64,000 nucleotides of DNA, from NCBI GenBank assembly GCA_963737155.1, contig CAVTRN010000001.1, positions 768,001 through 832,000 on the forward strand. The letters run 5' to 3'. The translations under genes and the position numbers were made by a program. Positions 10,278 through 64,000 of the stretch are shown here, piece by piece. The DNA is from Nitrospirota bacterium. GTDB taxonomy: Bacteria; Nitrospirota; UBA9217. The notes beneath the pieces were generated by a model. That model had not been told where the DNA came from, searched no databases, and saw only the letters and a list, made by a program, of their open reading frames with translations. How positions within the stretch are numbered: the first letter of the stretch is position 1; every line of letters begins with the position of its first letter.

Positions 10278-10363
<86 letters not shown>

Positions 10364-10429
10364 TACATAATGAAAGAACGGTTAAACAGTCTGAATGATT
10401 TGAGCGGTTGAGAAAATAATGATGAATAT

Positions 10430-10519
10430 GGAGAGGTGGCCGAGCGGCTGAAGGCAGCTGCCTGCTAAGCAGTTGTGGGGGTAACTCCACCCCGGGTTCG
10501 AATCCCGGCCTCTCCGCCA
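10430..10519 (+). tRNA. tRNA-Ser(GCT)
   Basis: CT-GCT-AA loop, long variable arm, T-loop, CCA. Confidence 0.97.
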
Positions 10520-10596
10520 GTTTCAAGAAAGCTTATAAGCAGCAGCCAACGGAACACTGTAAAAATATTTTTATCATTTTCAGGAGGGTATTTCCC

Positions 10597-11139
10597 ATGC
10601 TAAAAAGATCCATCGCCTTTATTGCTGTATTTGTTCTGGTTCTATCATTCGGAGCATGCAAGAAAAAAGAAGAGACGCCCCAGTTGCCATCAGGTCAACC
10701 GAGTGTCGGAGGGGGAATGCCCCCGGCCGGCATGCCGCCAGCGGGTATGCCGCCAGCCGTTGCGCCGAACTTACCAACGGTCGAGCGGCAAGTTGTGGTT
10801 TCGAAAGAAGTAAAGGCGAAGTGGAAGGCAGTGACACTGGCAGTTGAAGACAAAACATCCATGAAGACCAAAGAATATACCATAAACATCGGATCCCAGT
10901 TTGCCATCCCCGGCACCAAGTTGGTTGTTAAGGTGCTCAATTTCCTGCCGGACTTCAAAATGTCCGACAAGGAGTTTATGTCTCCTACGGATAAGCCGAA
11001 CATGCCCGCGGTGCAGATTTTTGTTTCCGAGAATGGGAAGGAGATTTGGAGAAACTGGCTGTTCTCGTTGCAGCCCACAGTTCATCCCTTCCAGCATGAG
11101 AAGATCGGCATCACGCTTGTGGGCGGTGTTCCCAGGTAG
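10597..11139 (+). CDS. Lipoprotein with Pro/Met-rich linker (DUF2155-like)
   Basis: Lipobox FGAC-KKKEE, GMPPA x3 linker, C-terminal WRNWLFS..HPFQH; SD AGGAGG; the family name is recalled, not searched. Confidence 0.65.
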   Translation: MLKRSIAFIAVFVLVLSFGACKKKEETPQLPSGQPSVGGGMPPAGMPPAGMPPAVAPNLPTVERQVVVSKEVKAKWKAVTLAVEDKTSMKTKEYTINIGSQFAIPGTKLVVKVLNFLPDFKMSDKEFMSPTDKPNMPAVQIFVSENGKEIWRNWLFSLQPTVHPFQHEKIGITLVGGVPR

Positions 11140-11184
11140 TTTCAGATTTCGGTGTTACTAGCTCATGCGCAGATGCGTTTTTTT

Positions 11185-11261
11185 GCGCCCATAGCTCAGC
11201 TGGATAGAGCAACGGACTACGAATCCGTAGGCCAGAGGTTCGAATCCTCTTGGGCGCACCA
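11185..11261 (+). tRNA. tRNA-Arg(ACG)
   Basis: GCGCCCA acceptor stem, CT-ACG-AA loop, GGTTCGAATCC, CCA. Confidence 0.97.
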
Positions 11262-11303
11262 TCTATCCTGAACAGAATTATTATCCGAGCGCAGGAAAGG
11301 GAA

Positions 11304-11798
11304 ATGGGACAGGGGCGGAGGACAGACGAGGATTTCATGACCCTGGCCTTGGCAGAGGCGCACAAGGCTGATGCTTTGGGTGAAACGCCGGTCGGAGCCG
11401 TACTTATCATCGGCGATGAGGTTATTTCCTCGGCCCACAATATGCGCGAGACATGGCAGGACCCCGCAGCCCATGCCGAACTGCTTGCAGTACGCGAGGC
11501 AGCGACCAGGCTCGGAAGGTGGCGGCTTTCGGACGCAACTCTATATGTGACTCTTGAGCCATGCCTGATGTGTTCTGGCGTCTTAGTGCTTGCGAGAGTC
11601 GGAAGGCTGGTGTATGGTTGCCGCGATTCCAAGGCTGGCGCGCTCGGATCGGTATACGATGTCGTGCGAGACGGCAGGCTGAACCATACCTATCGGATAA
11701 CACCCGGCATTCTGGAGGCGGAATGCCGTCAGGTACTTCAAAACTTTTTTGAAAAAGTTAGAAATAAGCCCCTTGGATCGAAGGCATCGAGGGTGTGA
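11304..11798 (+). CDS. tadA: tRNA adenosine(34) deaminase
   Basis: HAE and EPCLMC zinc motifs, PVGAV; start moved to ATG 11304 because the ORF-track start lies inside the tRNA. Confidence 0.95.
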   Translation: MGQGRRTDEDFMTLALAEAHKADALGETPVGAVLIIGDEVISSAHNMRETWQDPAAHAELLAVREAATRLGRWRLSDATLYVTLEPCLMCSGVLVLARVGRLVYGCRDSKAGALGSVYDVVRDGRLNHTYRITPGILEAECRQVLQNFFEKVRNKPLGSKASRV

Positions 11799-11865
11799 TG
11801 GGGCAACGGCTTGAAGACTCGGCACGCTTATGTAACTTCAGAACCGTAAGTTATTGATGAAACCC

Positions 11866-11955
11866 GGAGAGGTGGCCGAGCGGCTGAAGGCGGCAGTCTC
11901 GAAAACTGTTGTGGGGGTAACTCCACCGGGGGTTCAAATCCCCCCCTCTCCGCCA
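11866..11955 (+). tRNA. tRNA-Ser(CGA)
   Basis: CT-CGA-AA loop, long variable arm, CCA. Confidence 0.97.
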
Positions 11956-12006
11956 TACACCAAAAAGATTTAAACGGTTCATGCGGTCGAACAAAATGAA
12001 GATCAC

Positions 12007-12094
12007 GGAGAGGTGGCCGAGCGGCTGAAGGCGCACGCTTGGAAAGCGTGTTTAGGGAAACCTAACGTGGGTTCAAATCCCACCCTCTCCGCCA
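12007..12094 (+). tRNA. tRNA-Ser(GGA)
   Basis: TT-GGA-AA loop, long variable arm, CCA. Confidence 0.97.
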
Positions 12095-12192
12095 TATTTA
12101 AAAAAAGTTCATAGTTTAGAGTAAGAGTTAAAATGATTATAAATGATTTTACCTTAAGCATTGAACCCTAAACAACGTGCTATTTTATAAGC

Positions 12193-12305
12193 GCTCATGA
12201 GCCCGGGTCCTGCGCAACCACGGTCCCGTGAACCCCGTCAGGTCCGGAAGGAAGCAGCGGTAAGCGGGGTCCGGGTGTGCCGCAGGGGCACCCGGGTTCA
12301 TGAGC
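12193..12305 (+). ncRNA. ffs: Signal recognition particle RNA (small bacterial type)
   Basis: Helix-8 signature TCAGGTCCGGAAGGAAGCAGC; ends pair (GCTCATGAGCCCGGG / CCCGGGTTCATGAGC); upstream of dnaX. Confidence 0.95.
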
Positions 12306-19946: not shown

Positions 19947-20022
19947 TCCCGGATAGCTCAGTCGGTAGAGCTGGTGGCTGTTAACCACCCTGTCGCAGGT
20001 TCGAGTCCTGCTCCGGGAGCCA
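19947..20022 (+). tRNA. tRNA-Asn(GTT)
   Basis: TCCCGGA acceptor stem, CT-GTT-AA loop, GGTTCGAGTCC, CCA. Confidence 0.97.
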
Positions 20023-47588: not shown

Positions 47589-47668
47589 CTAAAAGCTAAT
47601 CGACGCTGGGTAAATTCTAAAAGGTCGTGTATCCTGAACCCTTAAAATTCGCTTTTAAGGAGAACTGG

Positions 47669-49210
47669 ATGACGAGAGAAAGAATGCCCATGCGAACAAT
47701 CAAAGAAGTGTTACGCCTCAAATGGTCTTGCGGCTTAGGCAACCGCGCCATAGCCAAAAGCTGCGGCATCGCAAAGAGCACTGTTACTGAGTATCTAAAA
47801 CGAGCAACCAAAGCCAACCTGTCCTGGCCTTTGCCTGATAAACTCGACGATTCTGCCATTGAGCATCTGCTCTTCCCGCCTGTCATCGTTTCAGATTCCC
47901 CACGACCACTTCCTGTATGGGCTGACATCCACCGAGAGCTTGCACGGAAGAGCGTTACCTTAATGCTTCTCTGGGACGAGTACAAAGCGCAATATCCCGA
48001 GGGCTATCAGTACAGCCATTTCGCGGACCTCTATCGAGCCTATGCAAAGAAACTTGATATCTCCATGCGACAAATTCATCATGCAGGAGAGAAGCTATTT
48101 GTTGATTACTGCGGCCAAACGGTTCCGGTCATCGATCAATCCACCGGCGAGGTGCATGCGTGCCAGATTTTTGTCGCCGTTCTAGGCGCCAGCAACTTCA
48201 CGTATGCTGAGGCAACGTATACGCAGAGCTTGCCAGATTGGATCGGCTCCCATGTCCGAGCTCTCGGGTTCATCGGTGGTGTTCCGGAACTTCTAATCCC
48301 CGACAATTTGTTGAGTGGCGTTACCAAGGTTTGTCGCTATGAGCCAGGCATCAATCGCACCTATCAGGAGTTGGCCGTTCATTATGGGGCCGCGGTTATT
48401 CCCGCCCGTGTCAGAAAGCCAAAAGATAAAGCCAAGGCAGAGGCCGGAGTTCAACTCGTGCAGCGATGGATTCTGGCGGCTCTCAGGAACCGCACTTTTT
48501 TCAGCCTCACGGAGCTCAATGAGGCAATCTGTGGACTGCTGGATAAACTCAATAACAAACTGTTCAAGAAGCTCTCCGGCAGCCGTATGAGCCGGTTTCT
48601 CGAGCTTGATAAACCGGCGTTACGGCCGCTCCCTGCTATAGCGTTCGAGTACGCGGAATGGCAAATCAAAAAACGGTCAGGTATCAATTACCACATCGAA
48701 GTTGATAACCACTATTACAGTGTCCCGTATCAACTCCGCAGAGAATATCTGGACGTTCGGCTCACAGGATCCATTGTGGAGGTTTTCTTTAACAACAAAC
48801 GGGTCGCCTCGCATCTCCGATCCTATATAAAGTGGGGCTATACGACGCTCGCCGAACACATGCCGAAGTCCCATCAGGCCCATGCGGGTTTTACCCCAGA
48901 GCGTCTGATACGATGGGCGTCGGAAACCGGCAAATCAACAGCCGAACTGGTTACTGCCATCCTCGAAACGAAGCTTCACCCGCAACAGGGGTATAACTCC
49001 TGCTTTGGACTCGTCACTCTAGACAAGAAGTTTGGCAAAGAACGTGTCGAGGCCGCATGCAAGCGGGCGCTCGCCATCGGGGGCATCAGCTACAAAAGCG
49101 TCAGGTCCATTCTCGAAACCGGTCTGGACAAAAAGCCCTTGCCGGAGCCGAGAACTGCCGCACCGAAGATCACGCACAGCAACATCCGGGGCAGCGAATA
49201 CTATATCTAA
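47669..49210 (+). CDS. istA: IS21 transposase
   Basis: HHAGEKLFVDY, PDNL, PKDKAKAE, YSVP. Confidence 0.95.
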   Translation: MTRERMPMRTIKEVLRLKWSCGLGNRAIAKSCGIAKSTVTEYLKRATKANLSWPLPDKLDDSAIEHLLFPPVIVSDSPRPLPVWADIHRELARKSVTLMLLWDEYKAQYPEGYQYSHFADLYRAYAKKLDISMRQIHHAGEKLFVDYCGQTVPVIDQSTGEVHACQIFVAVLGASNFTYAEATYTQSLPDWIGSHVRALGFIGGVPELLIPDNLLSGVTKVCRYEPGINRTYQELAVHYGAAVIPARVRKPKDKAKAEAGVQLVQRWILAALRNRTFFSLTELNEAICGLLDKLNNKLFKKLSGSRMSRFLELDKPALRPLPAIAFEYAEWQIKKRSGINYHIEVDNHYYSVPYQLRREYLDVRLTGSIVEVFFNNKRVASHLRSYIKWGYTTLAEHMPKSHQAHAGFTPERLIRWASETGKSTAELVTAILETKLHPQQGYNSCFGLVTLDKKFGKERVEAACKRALAIGGISYKSVRSILETGLDKKPLPEPRTAAPKITHSNIRGSEYYI

Positions 49211-49224
49211 AAAAGGAGACCAAT

Positions 49225-49968
49225 ATGTTAATACACCCTACACTCGACAAGATCGAACAGCTCCGATTGTTCGGTATGGCAAAAGCCCTGCGTGAACAGC
49301 TGCAGAATCAAGAAGCATCTGCTTTAAACTTCGAGGAACGCTTGGGGCTCCTCATTGACCGCGAAATGACGGAGCGGGAAAATAAGCGGCTTGCGACCCG
49401 CTTAAGAACAGCAAAACTGAGGATGTCGGCGTCCGTAGAAGACATCGACTTTCGTCAGCCCCGGGGGCTGGACAAATCGCTTATCCTGTCGCTTGCCTCG
49501 AATCAATGGATCACTGAACGTCACAACTTGCTCGTCATCGGCCCGACGGGTGCGGGCAAGAGCTATCTCGCCTGCGCCCTGTCCCACAAAGCCTGTCGCG
49601 ACGGGCATGTCGTCGTGTATCAAAGACTACCCCGGCTTCTGGAAGATCTGGCCCTTTCTCATCACGACGGACGATATCGAAAACTGATGAAATCCCTTCT
49701 CAAGGCAGATCTGCTTGTCCTCGACGACTTCGGGCTTGGTCCGCTTACATCGGAACAGCAAAGAGATCTTCTGGAAGTCATCGAAGACCGCTACGATCGC
49801 CGTTCAACACTCATAACCACTCAGCTAGCAGTGAAGCACTGGCATGATATCCTGGCTGATCCGACCTTGGCTGACGCAATCATGGATCGTTTGGTGCACA
49901 ATGCGTACAAAATCGAATTGAAGGGAGAGGACTCAATGAGAAAGATCAAATCAAAGATCAGGCGTTGA
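49225..49968 (+). CDS. istB: IS21 helper ATPase
   Basis: GPTGAGKS, LLVLDDFG, AIMDRLVH; SD AAGGAG. Confidence 0.95.
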   Translation: MLIHPTLDKIEQLRLFGMAKALREQLQNQEASALNFEERLGLLIDREMTERENKRLATRLRTAKLRMSASVEDIDFRQPRGLDKSLILSLASNQWITERHNLLVIGPTGAGKSYLACALSHKACRDGHVVVYQRLPRLLEDLALSHHDGRYRKLMKSLLKADLLVLDDFGLGPLTSEQQRDLLEVIEDRYDRRSTLITTQLAVKHWHDILADPTLADAIMDRLVHNAYKIELKGEDSMRKIKSKIRR

Positions 49969-52412: not shown

Positions 52413-53630
52413 CTACGCAACTTGTTTTACAGTCACTTGGTACCCCAATGCGGTAAGCCGTTTGATATAGCTTCGCGTTATCTTATCCTTCTTCCGTTTA
52501 TCAAGATAATCAGCGCCAAGCTCTCGATACGGAGTTTTGTGCTTCAGCATCTCGTAACTCATGATGAGGATCTTATGACCCACGGCTACCAAGGCTCGTT
52601 TCTTTCCGCGGCGTCCCACAAAACTATGGTACTTGGCTTTCAAGTAGCAATCTTTCTTTCGAGAGGCTGCCCAGCCGCATTCCGTAAGCGTTGTTCTTAA
52701 AGCTTTGTTTCCATGGGTGGTCTTGGATGTTTTTTTTTACCCGCGCTCTCGTGGTTACCAGGGCTCATCCCAGCCCAAGACGTTAAATGCTCAGCGGTAG
52801 GAAACTGGCTCATATCCACACCGATTTCGGCAATAATGGACGCTGCGCCATATTCCTTGACCCCGGGTATCGTCTGGAGCAACTCATACTCTTCTGCGTA
52901 AGGTTTGAGCTTGGCGTCTACCTGTCGATCTACATCAACGATAAGCTTCTCGATCGACTTGATATGCTCAAGGGATGTTCGAATCATGAAAATATGGTGT
53001 CCGGTTACCCGTCCGACCAGCGCCTCGCGAATCGCGTCTTTCTTCTTCTTAAGTTTTCCCTTGGCAAGGTTGGTCATTTCCTCAATCGTCAGTTCATCCG
53101 TCAAAAGTGCATCGATGATCGCCGTGGCGCTTACACCAAAGGTGTCTGATACGACCGAGGAAAGTTTGATGTTGGCATCTTCCAGGGTCTTCTGCACCCG
53201 ATTCCTTTCGGCGGTAATAGACTGAATTAATTTTTTCCGATATCTCGTCAGGTCCCGTAGTTCCCGAATATCCTGCGGTGGAATGAAGCTGCCTTTCACC
53301 AAACCAGCTCGTAGAAGTTTGCACAACCATTCACTGTCGCTCACATCAGTCTTTCTGCCGGGCACATGCTTAATGTGACGGGCATTGACCAAAACTACTT
53401 CAAAATCCTCTTCCAGAATATTAAAAAACCGGTTTCCAGTAAATCCCGGTGCTCTCCATCGCCACGTGGGTGATGCCGTTCTCCTTGAGCCAGTCCCGCA
53501 GTCGATACAATTCGTTGGTTACCGTGCCGAAGGTTCGCGTCTCTTTTTTGATACCCACTCCATCAATAGTTGCGACTACCGTTTCCTGGTGTACATCCAA
53601 ACCCGCTCCACGTTCTACTACAATGTCCAT
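52413..53630 (-). pseudogene. IS110-family recombinase, two frameshifts
   Basis: GLDVH, MESTG, GRKTDVSD (DEDD), TIPGV, ESAGK; frames break at a T6 run near 53425 and an A9 run near 52735. Confidence 0.88.
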
Positions 53631-54759: not shown

Positions 54760-56603
54760 CCCATCTTCTACAGTTGTAGCCGAGAAAAGGGCTATTTGCG
54801 TGAGTGAAGTTGTTTGATTTCGCAGAGTTACAAAAAGTTTTTTGGAAAAAGATCAAAATGTAGTGCCACGTTTATATATTAATTGCTTGCAATTAATAAT
54901 TATTATGATATATTTATGGTGCTATGTTCTTCCGGGTAAAACGCTCCGAATCGCGAGCATATCTCCAAATCGTTAATAACCGCCGCGACAAGGGCAAGGT
55001 AAAGCAGGAAGTCGTCGCCACGCTTGGACGACTCGATGCGCTCAAGGAAACAGGGGCATTGGACAGCCTGCTACGGTCAGGGCTCAAGTTCTCTGAACAG
55101 ATCGCTGTCATCGACGCGCATAAGCAGGGCGAAGCAATTGAGACGGATTCCAGGCGTATCGGCCTTCCGATGATATTCGGCCGGTTATGGAAAGAGCTGG
55201 GAATACAGGCGGTGCTTGCGACATTGGCCAAGGAGCGCAAGCATCAATTTTCCATCGAGCGGGCGATTTATCTTACGGTGCTGCACCGCTTGAGCGTATC
55301 GGGTTCAGATCGTGCCGCTGAACAATGGTGCCTTGGCTACAGGATAGAAGGGGCCGACGGAATCGATTTACATCATTTATACCGGGCTATGGCATGGCTC
55401 GGCGAACCCCTTGCCGATGCTGATCAGCACGGGGCCACCGGATTTTCTCCCCGCTGCACCAAGGATGTGATTGAGGAAGAGCTGTTCCGACGCAGACGGG
55501 ATTTATTCACCGATCTACGGCTGGTCTTTTTCGACACCACGAGCATTTACTTTGAAGGAGAGGGCGGCGAGGATATCGGTGCATATGGCCATTCCAAGGA
55601 CCACCGGCCCGATCTCAAACAGATGGTGGTCGGTGCAATCATCGATCATCACGGCAAGCCCCTTTGCTGTGAGTTATGGCCCGGCAACACAACCGACGTC
55701 AAGACGCTCGTGCCGATTATAGACCGGCTGAGGCTCCGCTTCGGCATCAATCAGGCGTGTGTAGTGGCCGACCGAGGGATGATCAGCGAAAAGACTCTGG
55801 CCGATTTGCAGGAGCGGAAGATCGATTACATTCTGGGCGCGCGGATGCGGCGGCAAATGGTAGGCGAGCGCCGCTACATCGTGTGTGTCAATGAGGACCA
55901 GCGGAAAAAAGACGCCGCTGATAGAGAAGCCATCATCGCATCCCTTCGAGAGAAGCTGAAGCAGGGAGGCAAGAGCCTGGTTGGCAACAAAGGGTATCGT
56001 AAATATGTGAAGAGCGCAGGCAGTGCTTTTGCCATTGATGAAGAGAAAGTTCAACAGGAATCACGATATGACGGTAAGTGGGTCCTCTCGACCTCGATGC
56101 CCATGCCTGCGCGCGAGGTTGCTCTCGCGTACAAGGAGCTGTGGATGGTGGAGCAGATCTTCAGGAGCACTAAAACGGTGCTGACGACGCGGCCGATTTA
56201 TCATAAATGCGATGAGACGATTCGCGGTCACGTTTTCTGCAGCTTTCTTGCGCTTGTTCTTATGAAGGAATTACAGGAGCGATTGGATAGCCGCAATGAG
56301 GAGAAGCTTGAGTGGGGCCAGATGCTCCGAGATCTTGAGGAATTGAAGCAGATCACAATTACAAGCGACAACAAGGAAATGATTTTACGGACCGAATTAA
56401 AAGGCGATACGGGAAAGGTGTTTCAGGCTGCGGGAGTGGCGATTCCGCCAAAGGTCTTGATACCGCAGAAGGGAAAGGATGCATGACGCTCATCAGCATG
56501 ATCGAATTGGAACGAGAGGGGAAAGTGTAGTGCCACGCCACCTTTCGACAGCCGTATCATATTGTTTAAGCGAAGTTATTTTTTGGCAGGTGTAGAAGAT
56601 GGG
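54760..56603 (+). mobile_element. Second IS1634-family element
   Basis: 13-bp IRs CCCATCTTCTACA / TGTAGAAGATGGG, 5-bp target duplication TTAGT (54755-54759, 56604-56608). Confidence 0.92.
54924..56486 (+). CDS. IS1634 DDE transposase
   Basis: FFDTTSIYFEG, GHSKDHRPD, VADRGM, YKELWMVEQIFR..RPIYH. Confidence 0.9.
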   Translation: MFFRVKRSESRAYLQIVNNRRDKGKVKQEVVATLGRLDALKETGALDSLLRSGLKFSEQIAVIDAHKQGEAIETDSRRIGLPMIFGRLWKELGIQAVLATLAKERKHQFSIERAIYLTVLHRLSVSGSDRAAEQWCLGYRIEGADGIDLHHLYRAMAWLGEPLADADQHGATGFSPRCTKDVIEEELFRRRRDLFTDLRLVFFDTTSIYFEGEGGEDIGAYGHSKDHRPDLKQMVVGAIIDHHGKPLCCELWPGNTTDVKTLVPIIDRLRLRFGINQACVVADRGMISEKTLADLQERKIDYILGARMRRQMVGERRYIVCVNEDQRKKDAADREAIIASLREKLKQGGKSLVGNKGYRKYVKSAGSAFAIDEEKVQQESRYDGKWVLSTSMPMPAREVALAYKELWMVEQIFRSTKTVLTTRPIYHKCDETIRGHVFCSFLALVLMKELQERLDSRNEEKLEWGQMLRDLEELKQITITSDNKEMILRTELKGDTGKVFQAAGVAIPPKVLIPQKGKDA

Positions 56604-56890
56604 TTAGTGGTTACCGACGCGAGCATTCACTGGCTTCGCCCCTTCACGGTCGACACTCCGGCATGCCTTCCACCCACATTCACGTCGGCGACGACGAAGT
56701 GCTGTTGGACGACTCGCTCCAATATGTTGAGCGTGCAGTTGCCGCAGGCGTCGATGCCCGAGCTGATGTGTGGATGGGGATGCCACACGGGTTTCTCGTA
56801 AGCATCGGAAGATTGAAGGCGGCAGCACAGGCGCAGGATGCCATCGGTGCTTTCCTCGCCGAGAGTTTGAAGGCGCACGAGAGTCCGTAA

Positions 56891-57452: not shown

Positions 57453-58391
57453 TTATTCTTTCATCACCAGTTCTACGGGATAGCCATGATCGCGCCATGC
57501 GTGAAATCCACCCAGAAGCGGCCGAACATGCTTAACCCCCTTTTGCCGCAAAACCAGCGCCACCCGGGCGCTCGAGGCCTCGTTGGGTCACGTGCAATAA
57601 ACGACTGTCTCACGGTCGCTTGATAATGCAGGATAACTCTCTGCCTGGTCTAAAGACATGCGTAAAGCTCCAGGGATCACATAAGGGTCCGCTTCGAAAT
57701 CGAGAGAGTGGCGCACATCAATAATTAATACGTTTTCGCCGGTTTCTAATTTTTGTTTCAATTCATCCGGTGTTATGCGCGCCATGACAAGTTGCTTTAA
57801 AAAGCGCCGACGTAAAGAGTATTTCCAAAGGATATAAATGGTCAGTCCTCCAGCCACGAGCGCAAAGAGCGTTTTGCCCATGCTCCCGGCGTAGTCCAAG
57901 GCGCGATCAAGCTCTTCGCTGAAGATATATCCGAGAATAGAATATGTAGTGGTCCAAAGGAGTATTCCAAGAACATCGAATAGCACAAAGCGTGACAGGG
58001 GCATGCGGATGATACCAGCCAAAGGCGTTGACACGGCGCTCAGGCCGGGTAGAAATTTTGTTATCAGGAGGGACCGTGCGCCGTACACTCCAAAGATGCT
58101 CTCTGTGTGACGGACGCAGGAGTCTGGTTCGAGAGCAATACGGCAGATCATGGATAACACCTTGCTTCCGCGATTGCGGCCCACCGTATACCAGAAAATG
58201 TCACTCAGTAGTGCAGCACAGACTCCCAGACCGATACAGAGAAACAGATTCAGTTGCCCGGCACCAGCAAGGGCTCCCATCGTTATGAGGAGGGGAACGC
58301 TCGGCAGAGGAAGCCCCATTGTTTCCGCAAGGACCCATATAAACAGCACTGCGTACCCGTGTTGTATGAGAAACGGTATGATTTTATCCAT
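57453..58391 (-). CDS. DedA-rhodanese fusion, candidate selenoprotein (in-frame UGA at 57588-57590)
   Basis: DedA domain (ETMGLPLP, KFLPG..RF); rhodanese IDVR..IPGA..YCT*PNEASSARVA..LLGGFHAW..GYP continues 44 aa past UGA to TAA at 57453. Confidence 0.8.
57549..57590 (-). promoter_or_regulatory. Candidate bacterial SECIS element
   Basis: UGA, then 21 nt to a CGGGU loop closed by AGCGCC/GGCGCU; possible lower stem CGAGGCC/GGUUUUG. Confidence 0.6.
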
Positions 58392-59971: not shown

Positions 59972-61242
59972 ATGAACTGCATTAATGATATCAGACTTGA
60001 GCAGTTCCATCAACTGAAGAACGAGATTCGCAGTTCTGCGGAGTATTTGGTCGTCGGTTTGGACATTGCCAAGGAGAAACACAATGCTTTCTTCGGTACA
60101 GCAAACGGTAAAACACTGCACAGGGGAATGTCCTTTGATAATACGTTAAAGGTTTTCGCAAGCTGCTTACGCAGGTAGAGGCACTCAAGACGCAATATGG
60201 TCTGCCGAAGGTGGTCTTTGGCATGGAGCCGACGGCTAATTACCATAAACCCTTGGCGGAACATCTCATAAAGTACAGCCACATGGTTGTTCTGGTATCT
60301 ATCGCATCGACAGCAAAGAACCGGGAGCTTTTGGACGGCCGATGGGACAAGCATGACACCAAGGATGCGGCGAACGTTGCTGACCTTGTCGCCCAAGGGA
60401 AATGCCTGTACTACGACTTTCCGGAAGCAGCTATACGTAATATGAGGGGCCTCCTTTCGTTCAAGAAGCGGCTCACGAAAGAAGAGCATGCACTGCAGGT
60501 CCGCATCCGCAATCAGCTGCTCGCACAGTACTTCCCGGAGATGGACCGCCATTTTCGCTCAGCAGTGAGCCTGGCCGTGATTCGGACCTGTCTTGATCCA
60601 TCGTTGATTGTTGGGATGGAATACGACGAGTTTTGCCGGACCGTAGCGCCAGGGAGGGTGAACTTTAGACAACAGAGTCTGCTCCAGCAGATCTGGCAAC
60701 TAGCTCACAAGTCTATCGGTTGTCGGGTAGATGAAACCGTATTGTTTGAAGCGCAAACGATGGTTCAGAGCCTCCACCATGTGCGGGAGACGATTAAAGC
60801 CGTTGATGATAAAACAAAGGATCTCTGTTTACCGTATCCCGAATACGCCTGTCTTTTAAGCATCCCGGGCTTTGGTCCAGATGTTTCTTCCACTGTATTG
60901 AGCGCGCTCGGCAATCCGTACTGGTTTTCCTGCAGTAAGCAGGTTCTAAAGATGGCCGGTTATGATTTGTGTGCTGATCGGAGCGGTAAAACAATATCAA
61001 ATGCCGTTCCGGTTATTTCCAAGATAGGCAAGGTTGGTCTGCGATCCGCCCTTTATCAGGCGGCGGTTATCGCTTCCAACAGCAATACTTTATTCATGGC
61101 CTATTACACCGATAAGCTTAAAGATCGAAGTTGGGAGAAAGGAATCGGAACCAAAATGCGGGTGAAGCTCGCCGCGAAACTCTTGATCGTTGCCTGGACA
61201 CTGATGAAGAAGAAAGAGGGCCTGGTTGGCCAGGGGTCATAA
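59972..61242 (+). pseudogene. Second IS110-family recombinase, frameshifted
   Basis: VGLDIAK, MEPT, KHDTKDA, SIPGFG, RSGK; frame break near 60150-60180. Confidence 0.85.
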
Positions 61243-62660: not shown

Positions 62661-64000
62661 GTCGCGCCAGGTCAAGCCTGGGAGAGGTGAACGACCAGAA
62701 ACCGAAACCTTTCGTAGTGATTCTGTAGGCAACCAATCCTACCTGACAAAGCCTGGTCAGCAGTCAGAAGCGAGTCTTGCATGCGCATAGGTGACTATGT
62801 GTGTGAAGCGTAGACAGCTACTGCAAAAGCCGTGTCATTGAGCCCCGAAATAGCCTTGTGAGAGTTTTCGTTTTCAGAATGACGGGAACAGCATCGATCG
62901 TGCAGTACCGACCTTACATGATCGGTCCCACCGGGGTCAAAGAGCAGGGCAAATGTAGAGAAGGGTCATCCAGGAACCTGGGAGGTCTTGCCAACTCCGT
63001 CTTTGAAACACCGGTGGGGATACGGAACGAATAACTCCAGGCCTCAAATGTCCGCGCTGAGACGTGTGAGGAGGTGCTGAAGGGCACGAAACGAAACGAT
63101 CAGCGCGAAGGACGGTATCGCCAACTGAAGGAAACGAAAGACGGCGAGATGGGAAGCAAGATGTCGTAGCGCCCTCATAGTACCGGTGAAGCAGGGGAAT
63201 GAATCCCATCGGACCCTGTCGAGGTAAGGGGGGCGTCGTATTGTAGAATCGTTGAGGGGAAAGACAGAGGATGCGATGGAATCCGGAAATACAGTCTACA
63301 CGAAACAGCAACGGATAGCAGAACTCGCGAGGATTCACCCTGATGTGAGTTTTACGTCTCTAGCCCACCATATTGATTTAGGGTGGCTCTATGAAGCATT
63401 CGGGCGAACGCGAAAGGACGGAGCACCGGGAATAGATAAGCAGACCGCAGAAGAGTATGAGAAGGAGTTGAATGCGAATTTGCGGTCACTTCTGGAACGT
63501 GCCAAGTCGGGAAAATACGTCGCGCCGCCGGTGTTGCGGGCGCATATCCCGAAAGACCCGGCGAAGAATGAAACCCGTCCTATCGGTATACCGACGTTCG
63601 AGAATAAGGTGCTTCAGAGAGCTTGGCAGATGGTGCTGGAGCCATTATACGAACAGAAATTTCTGGACTGCTCATATGGGTTCCGGACGGGGCGTTCGGC
63701 CCACGACGCGCTGCAATCGTTGTGGACGCAGATGATGGACGTAGGCGGATGTTGGATCATCGATTTGGATATTCGGAATTTTTTCGATACGATGGTTCAC
63801 GAACACATCAGGAAAATTCTCAAGAGGCGGGTGAGTGACGGAGTAATAACGAGACTCATAGGGAAGTGGTTAAGGGCCGGTGTATGGGAGGCAGGAAACA
63901 TCAGTTACCCAGAAAAGGGTACTCCTCAAGGGTCGTTATGAGAAGCTTCTCATAAGCCGCCTTATCAGAAGTAATATGTTATCCGAAGTAAACACTGTAA
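62661..64000 (+). mobile_element. Group II intron, 5' part (start approximate; 3' end not in window)
   Basis: Domain I-like motifs GAAGCGAGTCTTGC, GAAGCGTAGACAG, TTGAGCCCCGAAA, GGAACCTGGGAG and ATAGTACCGGTGAAG before the RT ORF. Confidence 0.8.
63276..63941 (+). pseudogene. ltrA: Group II intron reverse transcriptase/maturase, interrupted after GTPQG
   Basis: APGID, RPIGIP, SYGFR.GRS, DIRNFFD, GTPQG then a stop; YADD absent. Confidence 0.88.

Follow-up and report, generated by a model that had tools for sequence, protein, structure and literature searches.

DedA proteins occur almost universally, and an explanation, as lipid-carrier flippases, exists for only a part of them. Those of COG0586 are described as putative undecaprenyl-phosphate flippases, with E39, D51, R130 and R136 of YghB given as the essential residues in the available text of PMC10127716. 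A rhodanese-fused DedA subgroup has been noted in print as unexplained, and the cysteine form of this architecture is described in excerpts of PMC10127716 and PMC12893004. The rhodanese with a Cys-x-Sec loop (Sec, selenocysteine) is a listed type of predicted selenoprotein, entered as 'form 3' and as model NF041203 in the available text of PMC13188914 and as 'COG0607 form 2' in that of PMC9312934. The gene described here encodes a DedA–rhodanese fusion with an in-frame UGA codon in the rhodanese active-site loop. It lies on the minus strand at 57453..58391 of the window, by which is meant the whole stretch of 64,000 nt that was analysed (Nitrospirota bacterium, UBA9217; assembly GCA_963737155.1, contig CAVTRN010000001.1, positions 768,001-832,000).

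Gene structure and position of the UGA codon

The UGA at codon 268 is very probably a selenocysteine codon and not a lesion, as judged from comparative sequence evidence, and we hold with scarcely less confidence that the gene encodes a 312-residue inner-membrane selenoprotein. In the list of open reading frames (ORFs) it appeared as a minus-strand ORF of 277 aa closed by the stop at 57588-57590, where the codons of the minus strand read TAT TGC ACG TGA CCC AAC GAG. The start of the gene was placed at the ATG at 58391, in agreement with the N-termini of orthologues (MDKVIPFL...). Translation from 58391 to 57453 with TGA read as Sec (U) gave 312 residues followed by TAA, with this single in-frame TGA and with no other stop and no frameshift. 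The C-terminus obtained by read-through is VVYCTUPNEASSARVALVLRQKGVKHVRPLLGGFHAWRDHGYPVELVMKE. The gene was scored as complete on its sequence, its translation, its Pfam domains and the N-termini of the orthologues.

Two Pfam domains are joined in the one polypeptide, both on the minus strand, as are all features of the gene given below. The N-terminal DedA/VTT membrane domain (PF09335; residues 29-155, 57927..58307) scored 57.9 bits against a cut-off of 33.9. The C-terminal rhodanese domain (PF00581; residues 207-301, 57489..57773) scored 49.9 bits, spans the UGA and was matched in the PDB by 6mxv, 3iwh and 3tp9. A first-pass annotation of the window had proposed this selenoprotein, giving the position of the UGA, the read-through sequence, the length of 312 aa and the absence of any other lesion, and all of its coordinates proved correct; it had also taken the tail for a genuine rhodanese C-terminus, which is borne out by the Pfam match across the TGA and by the rhodanese structures in the PDB.

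The UGA (57588..57590) closes the motif YCTU (residues 265-268), a Cys-x-Sec motif in the rhodanese active-site loop, which reads U-P-N-E-A-S-S from this residue onwards. In HMMER alignments column 268 fell on the active-site-loop cysteine of 6mxv and 3iwh (C-G-G-G-F-R-S and C-A-G-G-V-R-S, respectively; pattern C-x4-R-S), and these alignments strongly support that Sec268 takes the place of the canonical catalytic cysteine of rhodaneses. Two residues earlier stands Cys266 (TGC, 57594..57596), at the end of the central strand. It is Cys in 18 of 18 Sec forms and in 131 of the 150 cluster representatives described below; in the homologue P0032 the residue at 266 is Gly and the Cys at 268 is kept. 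Cys266 is possibly the resolving cysteine of a Cys-x-Sec pair.

Alternation of UGA and cysteine codons

The phylum was searched for the protein (401 genomes, match threshold E <= 1e-40), and 60 genomes held a match. The full-length matches at 63-100% identity numbered 22; one TGA stands at the column in 15 of them and the remaining seven have no stop. No stop was found in any of 55 further matches at 32-51% identity. A scan of genome contigs with the single protein as query gave only nine loci. Codons were read from 41 loci and duplicates were then removed, which left 18 distinct TGA forms, five close Cys forms (TGC or TGT), one Arg form (AGA), ten distant Cys forms and one stand-alone YCTU rhodanese. 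At the same column, 18 TGA forms thus face 15 Cys forms, and with protein identities of 62-86% among them the distinct TGA forms are not one clonal sequence. A maximum-likelihood tree of 34 rows, rooted by midpoint only, placed the ten distant Cys forms outside and required four label changes within the close clade; these would fit Sec being gained once, reverting to Cys twice and being replaced by Arg once.

The tail after the UGA was compared over 39 codons in the 18 Sec forms. Mean nonsynonymous divergence (dN) was 0.14 and mean synonymous divergence (dS) 0.97, with a median dN/dS of 0.15 (149 of 153 pairs), which points to purifying selection on the protein and hence to a translated tail.

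The same column was inspected in protein clusters. Of the 120 nearest proteins at the 90% cluster level, 83 stop right after x-C-[T/S], 75 of the 83 at exactly 267 aa, and 37 are full-length, with Cys at the column in 36 and Arg in one. At the 50% cluster level 505 representatives matched at E <= 1e-30, and column counts were made on the best 150 of these: 81 have Cys, 43 end just before the column, another residue stands there in 13 and the remaining 13 lack coverage of it. The shortened entries are deposited under names such as 'membrane protein DedA with SNARE-associated domain' and 'VTT domain-containing protein'. Because 83 of the 120 nearest homologues end at the codon and bear names of this kind, the mis-annotation is general. 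These results agree with the first-pass annotation in three respects: it had stated that the UGA replaces the Cys of a YCxCPNE motif, that the gene is usually annotated as truncated and that Cys/UGA alternation with conserved coding downstream should be looked for.

Three relatives were noted individually. In the nearest one (L022, G029:C52:8568-9491; 82-83% identity) AGA (Arg) replaces the Sec codon and the loop reads YCTRPDEAL; the hairpin sequence discussed below is retained in this gene and selB is present in the genome. The Arg form gives the impression that the catalytic residue was lost recently. Another relative carries a TGA copy and a Cys copy 100 kb apart (G215:C4:179984-180916 and G215:C4:80118-81044), and a third carries an intact TGA copy together with a second copy that is split into two overlapping frames (G221:C2:203578-204494).

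SECIS-type hairpin

In bacteria the selenocysteine insertion sequence (SECIS) lies just 3' of the UGA and has a G early in its apical loop. A hairpin of this type was located at 57556..57572, with the stem AGCGCC (57572-57567), the loop CGGGU (57566-57562) and the stem GGCGCU (57561-57556). It spans +16 to +32 and also codes for Ser-Ala-Arg-Val-Ala-Leu. Counted from the UGA, its stem begins at 16 nt and its loop at 21 nt. The exact pattern TGA-N15-AGCGCCCGGGYGGCG occurred once in the 4.84-Mb genome and not at all as a reversed control.

Codon usage around the hairpin was compared between the forms. Codons +6 to +10 read AGC GCC CGG GTG GCG in 18 of 18 Sec forms, bar one CGT and three GCG for GTG. 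Codons +1 to +5 of the Sec forms are free at the wobble position, with up to four synonymous codons each. The Cys and Arg forms (six close and ten distant) vary in the hairpin region, with CAG, CAA, AGA and AGG at +8 and GCA, GTG and GCC at +10. Of the 190 codons compared in the 18 Sec forms, 38 encode a residue that never varies and that could be written with more than one codon. Among these 38, codon entropy was zero only at +6, +7 and +10, all in the hairpin arms; it was 0.31 at +8 and lay between 0.31 and 1.86 at the remaining positions. In these alignments the synonymous sites of the hairpin are frozen only in Sec forms. The first-pass annotation had pointed out a GC-rich hairpin with its loop 21 nt after the UGA and a G early in that loop, and this is the element that is conserved, at SECIS distance, across the 18 forms.

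Two further Cys-x-TGA rhodanese genes were found in the host genome (L083, G000:C2:476410-476781, and L087, G000:C1:868788-868997). One of the two is a bona fide NF041203 member (161.2 bits; LYCA-TGA, with a hydrophobic N-terminus) and has the hairpin AGUGCC-CGUGU-GGCACU; the other reads FYCA-TGA-AKEAS and has GCCGCC-GGUCG-GGCGGC. Both stems begin at +16. Each hairpin occupies +16 to +32, with six base pairs in the stem and G as the second of five loop nucleotides, and the stem sequences differ from that of the DedA–rhodanese gene. In an alignment of 21 sequences 91.2% of the cells pair and three of the six pairs show a change on both sides, which was reached in none of 500 shuffles; slid registers of the same alignment gave 19-63% pairing. 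The hairpin of host selD has its loop 20 nt after its own UGA.

Several observations weigh against a SECIS function of the hairpin. A 66-nt stretch folded alone was no more stable than its shuffles (z = 0.47), and with the single-sequence fold unremarkable the case for the hairpin rests on the comparisons. The hairpin is also short: the RNAalifold consensus contained only four invariant pairs, CGCC/GGCG, and the CGGGU loop, and no extended lower stem was found by this program. The two outer pairs depend on codon +11: they exist with CUG and are lost in part with AUA. In nine of 19 distinct rows the second pair, counted from the base, does not form. All three compensatory pairs come from the two paralogues and none from orthologues. 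Since the hairpin overlaps the conserved SSARVA, part of its conservation is at the protein level. A scan of the window with Rfam at gathering thresholds gave nothing at the DedA–rhodanese gene.

In a wetland metagenome run (X6) several otherwise unlike contigs matched only positions 57555-57599, which contain the UGA and the hairpin, with a summed depth of about 76. The element made up of the UGA and the hairpin appears to be common to many different organisms at the nucleotide level. Among the DNA contigs of four runs, none spans the TGA at high identity.

Selenocysteine machinery

The host genome (4.84 Mb in two contigs, 100% complete) was searched for the genes of selenocysteine synthesis and insertion. 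SelB (374 bits), SelA (604 bits), SelD (370 bits) and tRNA-Sec (65 bits) were all found above their curated cut-offs; selA adjoins selB, and selD itself has one in-frame TGA. In other genomes selB scored above cut-off in all five further Sec-form genomes tested, in four of five close Cys- or Arg-form genomes (the fifth is 89% complete) and in none of five distant Cys-form genomes, each at least 99% complete. The distribution of selB tracks the TGA form. A recoding of the UGA by host SelA, SelB, SelD and tRNA-Sec, which the short GC-rich hairpin would direct, is strongly supported by these distributions together with the hairpin comparisons.

The first-pass annotation had suggested that selA, selB, selC and selD be sought in the genome, and had named a host without selABC, or a UGA confined to one strain with no conserved hairpin, as the findings that would speak for a simple mutation. 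All four genes are present, the UGA recurs in distinct forms from other genomes and the hairpin is conserved among them.

Genomic context and alternative explanations

The surroundings of the gene are dense in insertion sequences (IS). They comprise an IS21-type pair (a Mu-transposase-like gene and IstB, 47627-49965), an IS110 fragment (52700-53392), a DDE transposase of the IS4 type (54924-56486), a 75-aa C-terminal remnant of an alpha/beta hydrolase (56663-56887) and a full IS110-type transposase (60211-61242). The IS elements at 54924-56486 and 60211-61242 flank the gene on both sides. A group II intron (62733-62946; Rfam RF02005, 134 bits) is followed by a reverse-transcriptase ORF (63252-63941) that reaches the end of the window. 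In another part of the window a tRNA cluster (10278-12300) holds four tRNA-Ser with different anticodons, a tRNA-Arg and the signal recognition particle RNA within 2 kb, and a tRNA-Asn lies at 19947-20022.

Three alternatives to a functional selenoprotein gene were considered. The one that survives best is that the family is a true selenoprotein family, yet this copy is silent or non-functional, for example because insertion sequences have cut it off from its promoter. Expression of this copy could be poor, given that the gene has IS elements and gene remnants on either side. A consensus scan found no sigma-70-like promoter upstream on the gene's strand, although the scan was a crude one that gave fewer sites than shuffles throughout. 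The Arg for Sec and the altered loop of the nearest relative hint at relaxed constraint in a small lineage. However, the ORF, the Sec codon and the hairpin of the present copy are intact, fit the consensus of the 18 forms and show no frameshifts. A silent copy is considered improbable.

The second alternative is that the UGA is read through without Sec delivered by SelB, either by near-cognate insertion of Trp or Cys or after reassignment of UGA. The hairpin is minimal in comparison with the classic fdhF element of Escherichia coli, which counts in favour of this explanation. Against it, selB is present in the host and in all of the other TGA-form genomes tested, the five relatives without selB use Cys, and the alternation of the codon with Cys is the signature of Sec. 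Other host genes end at UGA, such as a rhodanese at C2:2795406-2795684, so that the codon is not reassigned genome-wide. Read-through of this kind is very unlikely.

The third alternative, a plain nonsense mutation that recently broke a gene in a decaying, IS-ridden region and left the hairpin as a by-product of SSARVAL coding, can call on the IS21, IS110 and IS4 transposases, the hydrolase remnant, the group II intron and the non-significant single-sequence fold, but has next to no likelihood in view of the recurrence of the TGA at this column in 18 distinct orthologues, with identities reaching down to 62%, the 43 of 150 distant representatives that end there, the intact downstream frame with its dN/dS of 0.15 and a freezing of synonymous sites that is confined to the hairpin and to TGA forms.

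Structure prediction and proposed function

An AlphaFold2 model was built with Cys in place of Sec from 106 aligned sequences. Its predicted local distance difference test (pLDDT) score of 86.5 and predicted template modelling (pTM) score of 0.77 indicate a coherent fold. In a Foldseek search of the PDB with this model only the rhodanese part was matched; the hits included 2hhg, 3nhv, 6mxv and YgaP, which is membrane-anchored, and none was a DedA structure.

The DedA half was aligned with E. coli YghB (29% identity over 156 residues). In this alignment YghB E39 corresponds to E23 and R130 to K112, but D51 corresponds to V32 and R136 to S118. The consensus of the 106-sequence alignment reads K-F-x-P-G-L-S here, and the second basic residue is missing at the position of S118. 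With two of the four essential re-entrant-helix residues of the flippases missing, the alignment argues against a standard flippase and leaves the identity of the substrate untouched. The two UptA models gave 60.2 bits (cut-off 250) and 48.9 bits (cut-off 300), and the equivalog level was not reached. A link between DedA and selenite resistance in Cupriavidus metallidurans, which had been mentioned at first pass, is found in print in the available text of PMC2744661, which cites Ledgham 2005.

A Cys-x8-Cys motif (C83...C92, CRIALEPDSC; 58116..58145) is present in a basic loop of the DedA domain. C83 is kept in 138 and C92 in 136 of the 150 cluster representatives; YghB does not have the motif, with W and K at the C83 and C92 columns. 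Residues 72-105 of the loop include six Arg/Lys, K112 follows just past it, and the last membrane helix is followed by a linker with the sequence KYSLRRRFLKQ. By the positive-inside rule, this basic loop and basic linker suggest that the Cys-x8-Cys loop and the rhodanese domain face the cytoplasm.

In the mechanism that we propose, the selenolate of Sec268 would act as the nucleophile and would carry a sulfane sulfur or selenium atom; alternatively, a selenenylsulfide between Sec268 and Cys266 would form and open again in a cycle. Sec268 may exchange with the Cys-x8-Cys loop of the DedA domain. Being without two of the four residues for the flipping of undecaprenyl phosphate, the DedA domain would handle some other membrane-associated substrate, coupled to chalcogen or redox chemistry. 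The functional proposal as such (a cytoplasmic rhodanese domain and Cys loop, sulfur/selenium or redox chemistry at the selenolate and a DedA substrate other than undecaprenyl phosphate) is tentative, and we would sooner expect it to fail in some part than to hold throughout. More speculative again is its full form. A DedA domain that has lost the phosphate-binding residue and one proton-binding residue would pass sulfur, selenium or reducing equivalents, through its cytoplasmic Cys-x8-Cys loop, to or from the selenolate of the tethered rhodanese, and would in this way link persulfide/perselenide or selenenylsulfide chemistry to a membrane substrate that is transported or scrambled.

Three results count against these functional proposals. 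Firstly, the nearest relative has Arg (AGA) at the Sec column, so that the residue can be lost. Secondly, a strict coupling of Cys-x8-Cys with Cys-x-Cys/Sec was rejected in the absence of strict co-loss: seven representatives keep the active-site CxC without CX8C, and nine keep CX8C with neither active-site Cys. Thirdly, when about 7 kb on each side (less at contig ends) was compared in 20 relatives and the window, no neighbour was conserved beyond the genus.

An argument by association from the gene context was also rejected as too thin. Only two genera have thiol-redox genes upstream in the same orientation, as AhpC/redoxin with a 115-aa ORF (g18) and as receiver–TrxR-like with DsbA-like (g87), and DUF302 lies downstream in two loci. 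In the first of these arrangements a Cys form follows an AhpC/redoxin-like gene and a 115-aa ORF without a family (L066:5954-6825, L068:5849-6816), and in the second a Cys form follows a fusion of a receiver with a pyridine-nucleotide-disulfide oxidoreductase and a DsbA-like gene (L077:4692-6979, L081:4770-6979).

If the proposal is true, the DedA/VMP1/TMEM41B superfamily would gain its first selenoenzyme, and with it a handle on a non-flippase function of DedA. The presence of Sec at the rhodanese catalytic position in many members suggests that the rhodanese domain is catalytically important and not decorative. The natural Sec, Cys and Arg variants in close genomes provide a ready set for tests of function. 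The family should be added to the catalogues of prokaryotic selenoproteomes and to annotation rules, most of the close homologues standing in the databases as truncations of 267 residues. In practical terms annotation is improved, and what is gained scientifically hinges on the substrate.

Comparison with described families

No model of NCBIfam release 20 is passed by the DedA–rhodanese protein. The 2026 selenoproteome review, in its available text, contains none of the words DedA, VTT and SNARE. No literature joining DedA or SNARE-associated proteins, rhodanese and selenoprotein was found in the searchable text, and the titles and opening lines of the abstracts of 15 of the 29 papers on DedA and selenocysteine point to none on a DedA selenoprotein. 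No paper or catalogue entry on the Sec form was found in titles and partial texts, the supplementary tables of the selenoproteome surveys, which could list it, lying outside the search.

The best NCBIfam hit was NF041203 ('rhodanese_LYCAU'; model positions 19-124 of 126), with which the protein has the rhodanese fold and the Cys-x-Sec loop in common. A stand-alone member of this family (L032, 135.3 bits) and the host member (161.2 bits) have the SECIS geometry and nearly the same hairpin sequence, and both pass the model as positive controls. The DedA–rhodanese, in contrast, remains below the cut-off of 115, the whole protein scoring 85.6 bits and its rhodanese domain by itself 88.2 bits. Its motif is V-Y-C-T-U-P-N-E instead of L-Y-C-A-U, and whereas NF041203 is a stand-alone protein of about 126 residues, the domain forms residues 199-312 of a 312-aa membrane fusion here. 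The function of the NF041203 family is itself only predicted in the review literature.

A precedent for a rhodanese selenoprotein domain on a polytopic membrane domain is TsoB (rhodanese/DsbD fusion-like, NF045694), according to a table in the selenoproteome review. The DedA–rhodanese scored 19-23 bits against the cut-off of 805 for TsoB, which has another membrane domain, the motif UxxxxU and two Sec residues.

With the flippases YghB/YqjA of E. coli and UptA of Bacillus subtilis (NF052604, NF052605) the core VTT/DedA domain is common and the equivalents of E39 and R130 are kept. The DedA–rhodanese differs from them in its additional Cys-x8-Cys loop and rhodanese domain and in the Val and Ser at the equivalents of D51 and R136.

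The Cys-form DedA–rhodanese proteins of COG0586, for example PA1209 of Pseudomonas aeruginosa (311 aa), have the same combination of PF09335 and PF00581 and the same length. In a full-text search, neither PMC10127716 nor PMC12893004 was found to join selenoprotein, DedA and rhodanese. The gene is a fused variant in which a known selenoprotein domain is set on the known Cys-form architecture.

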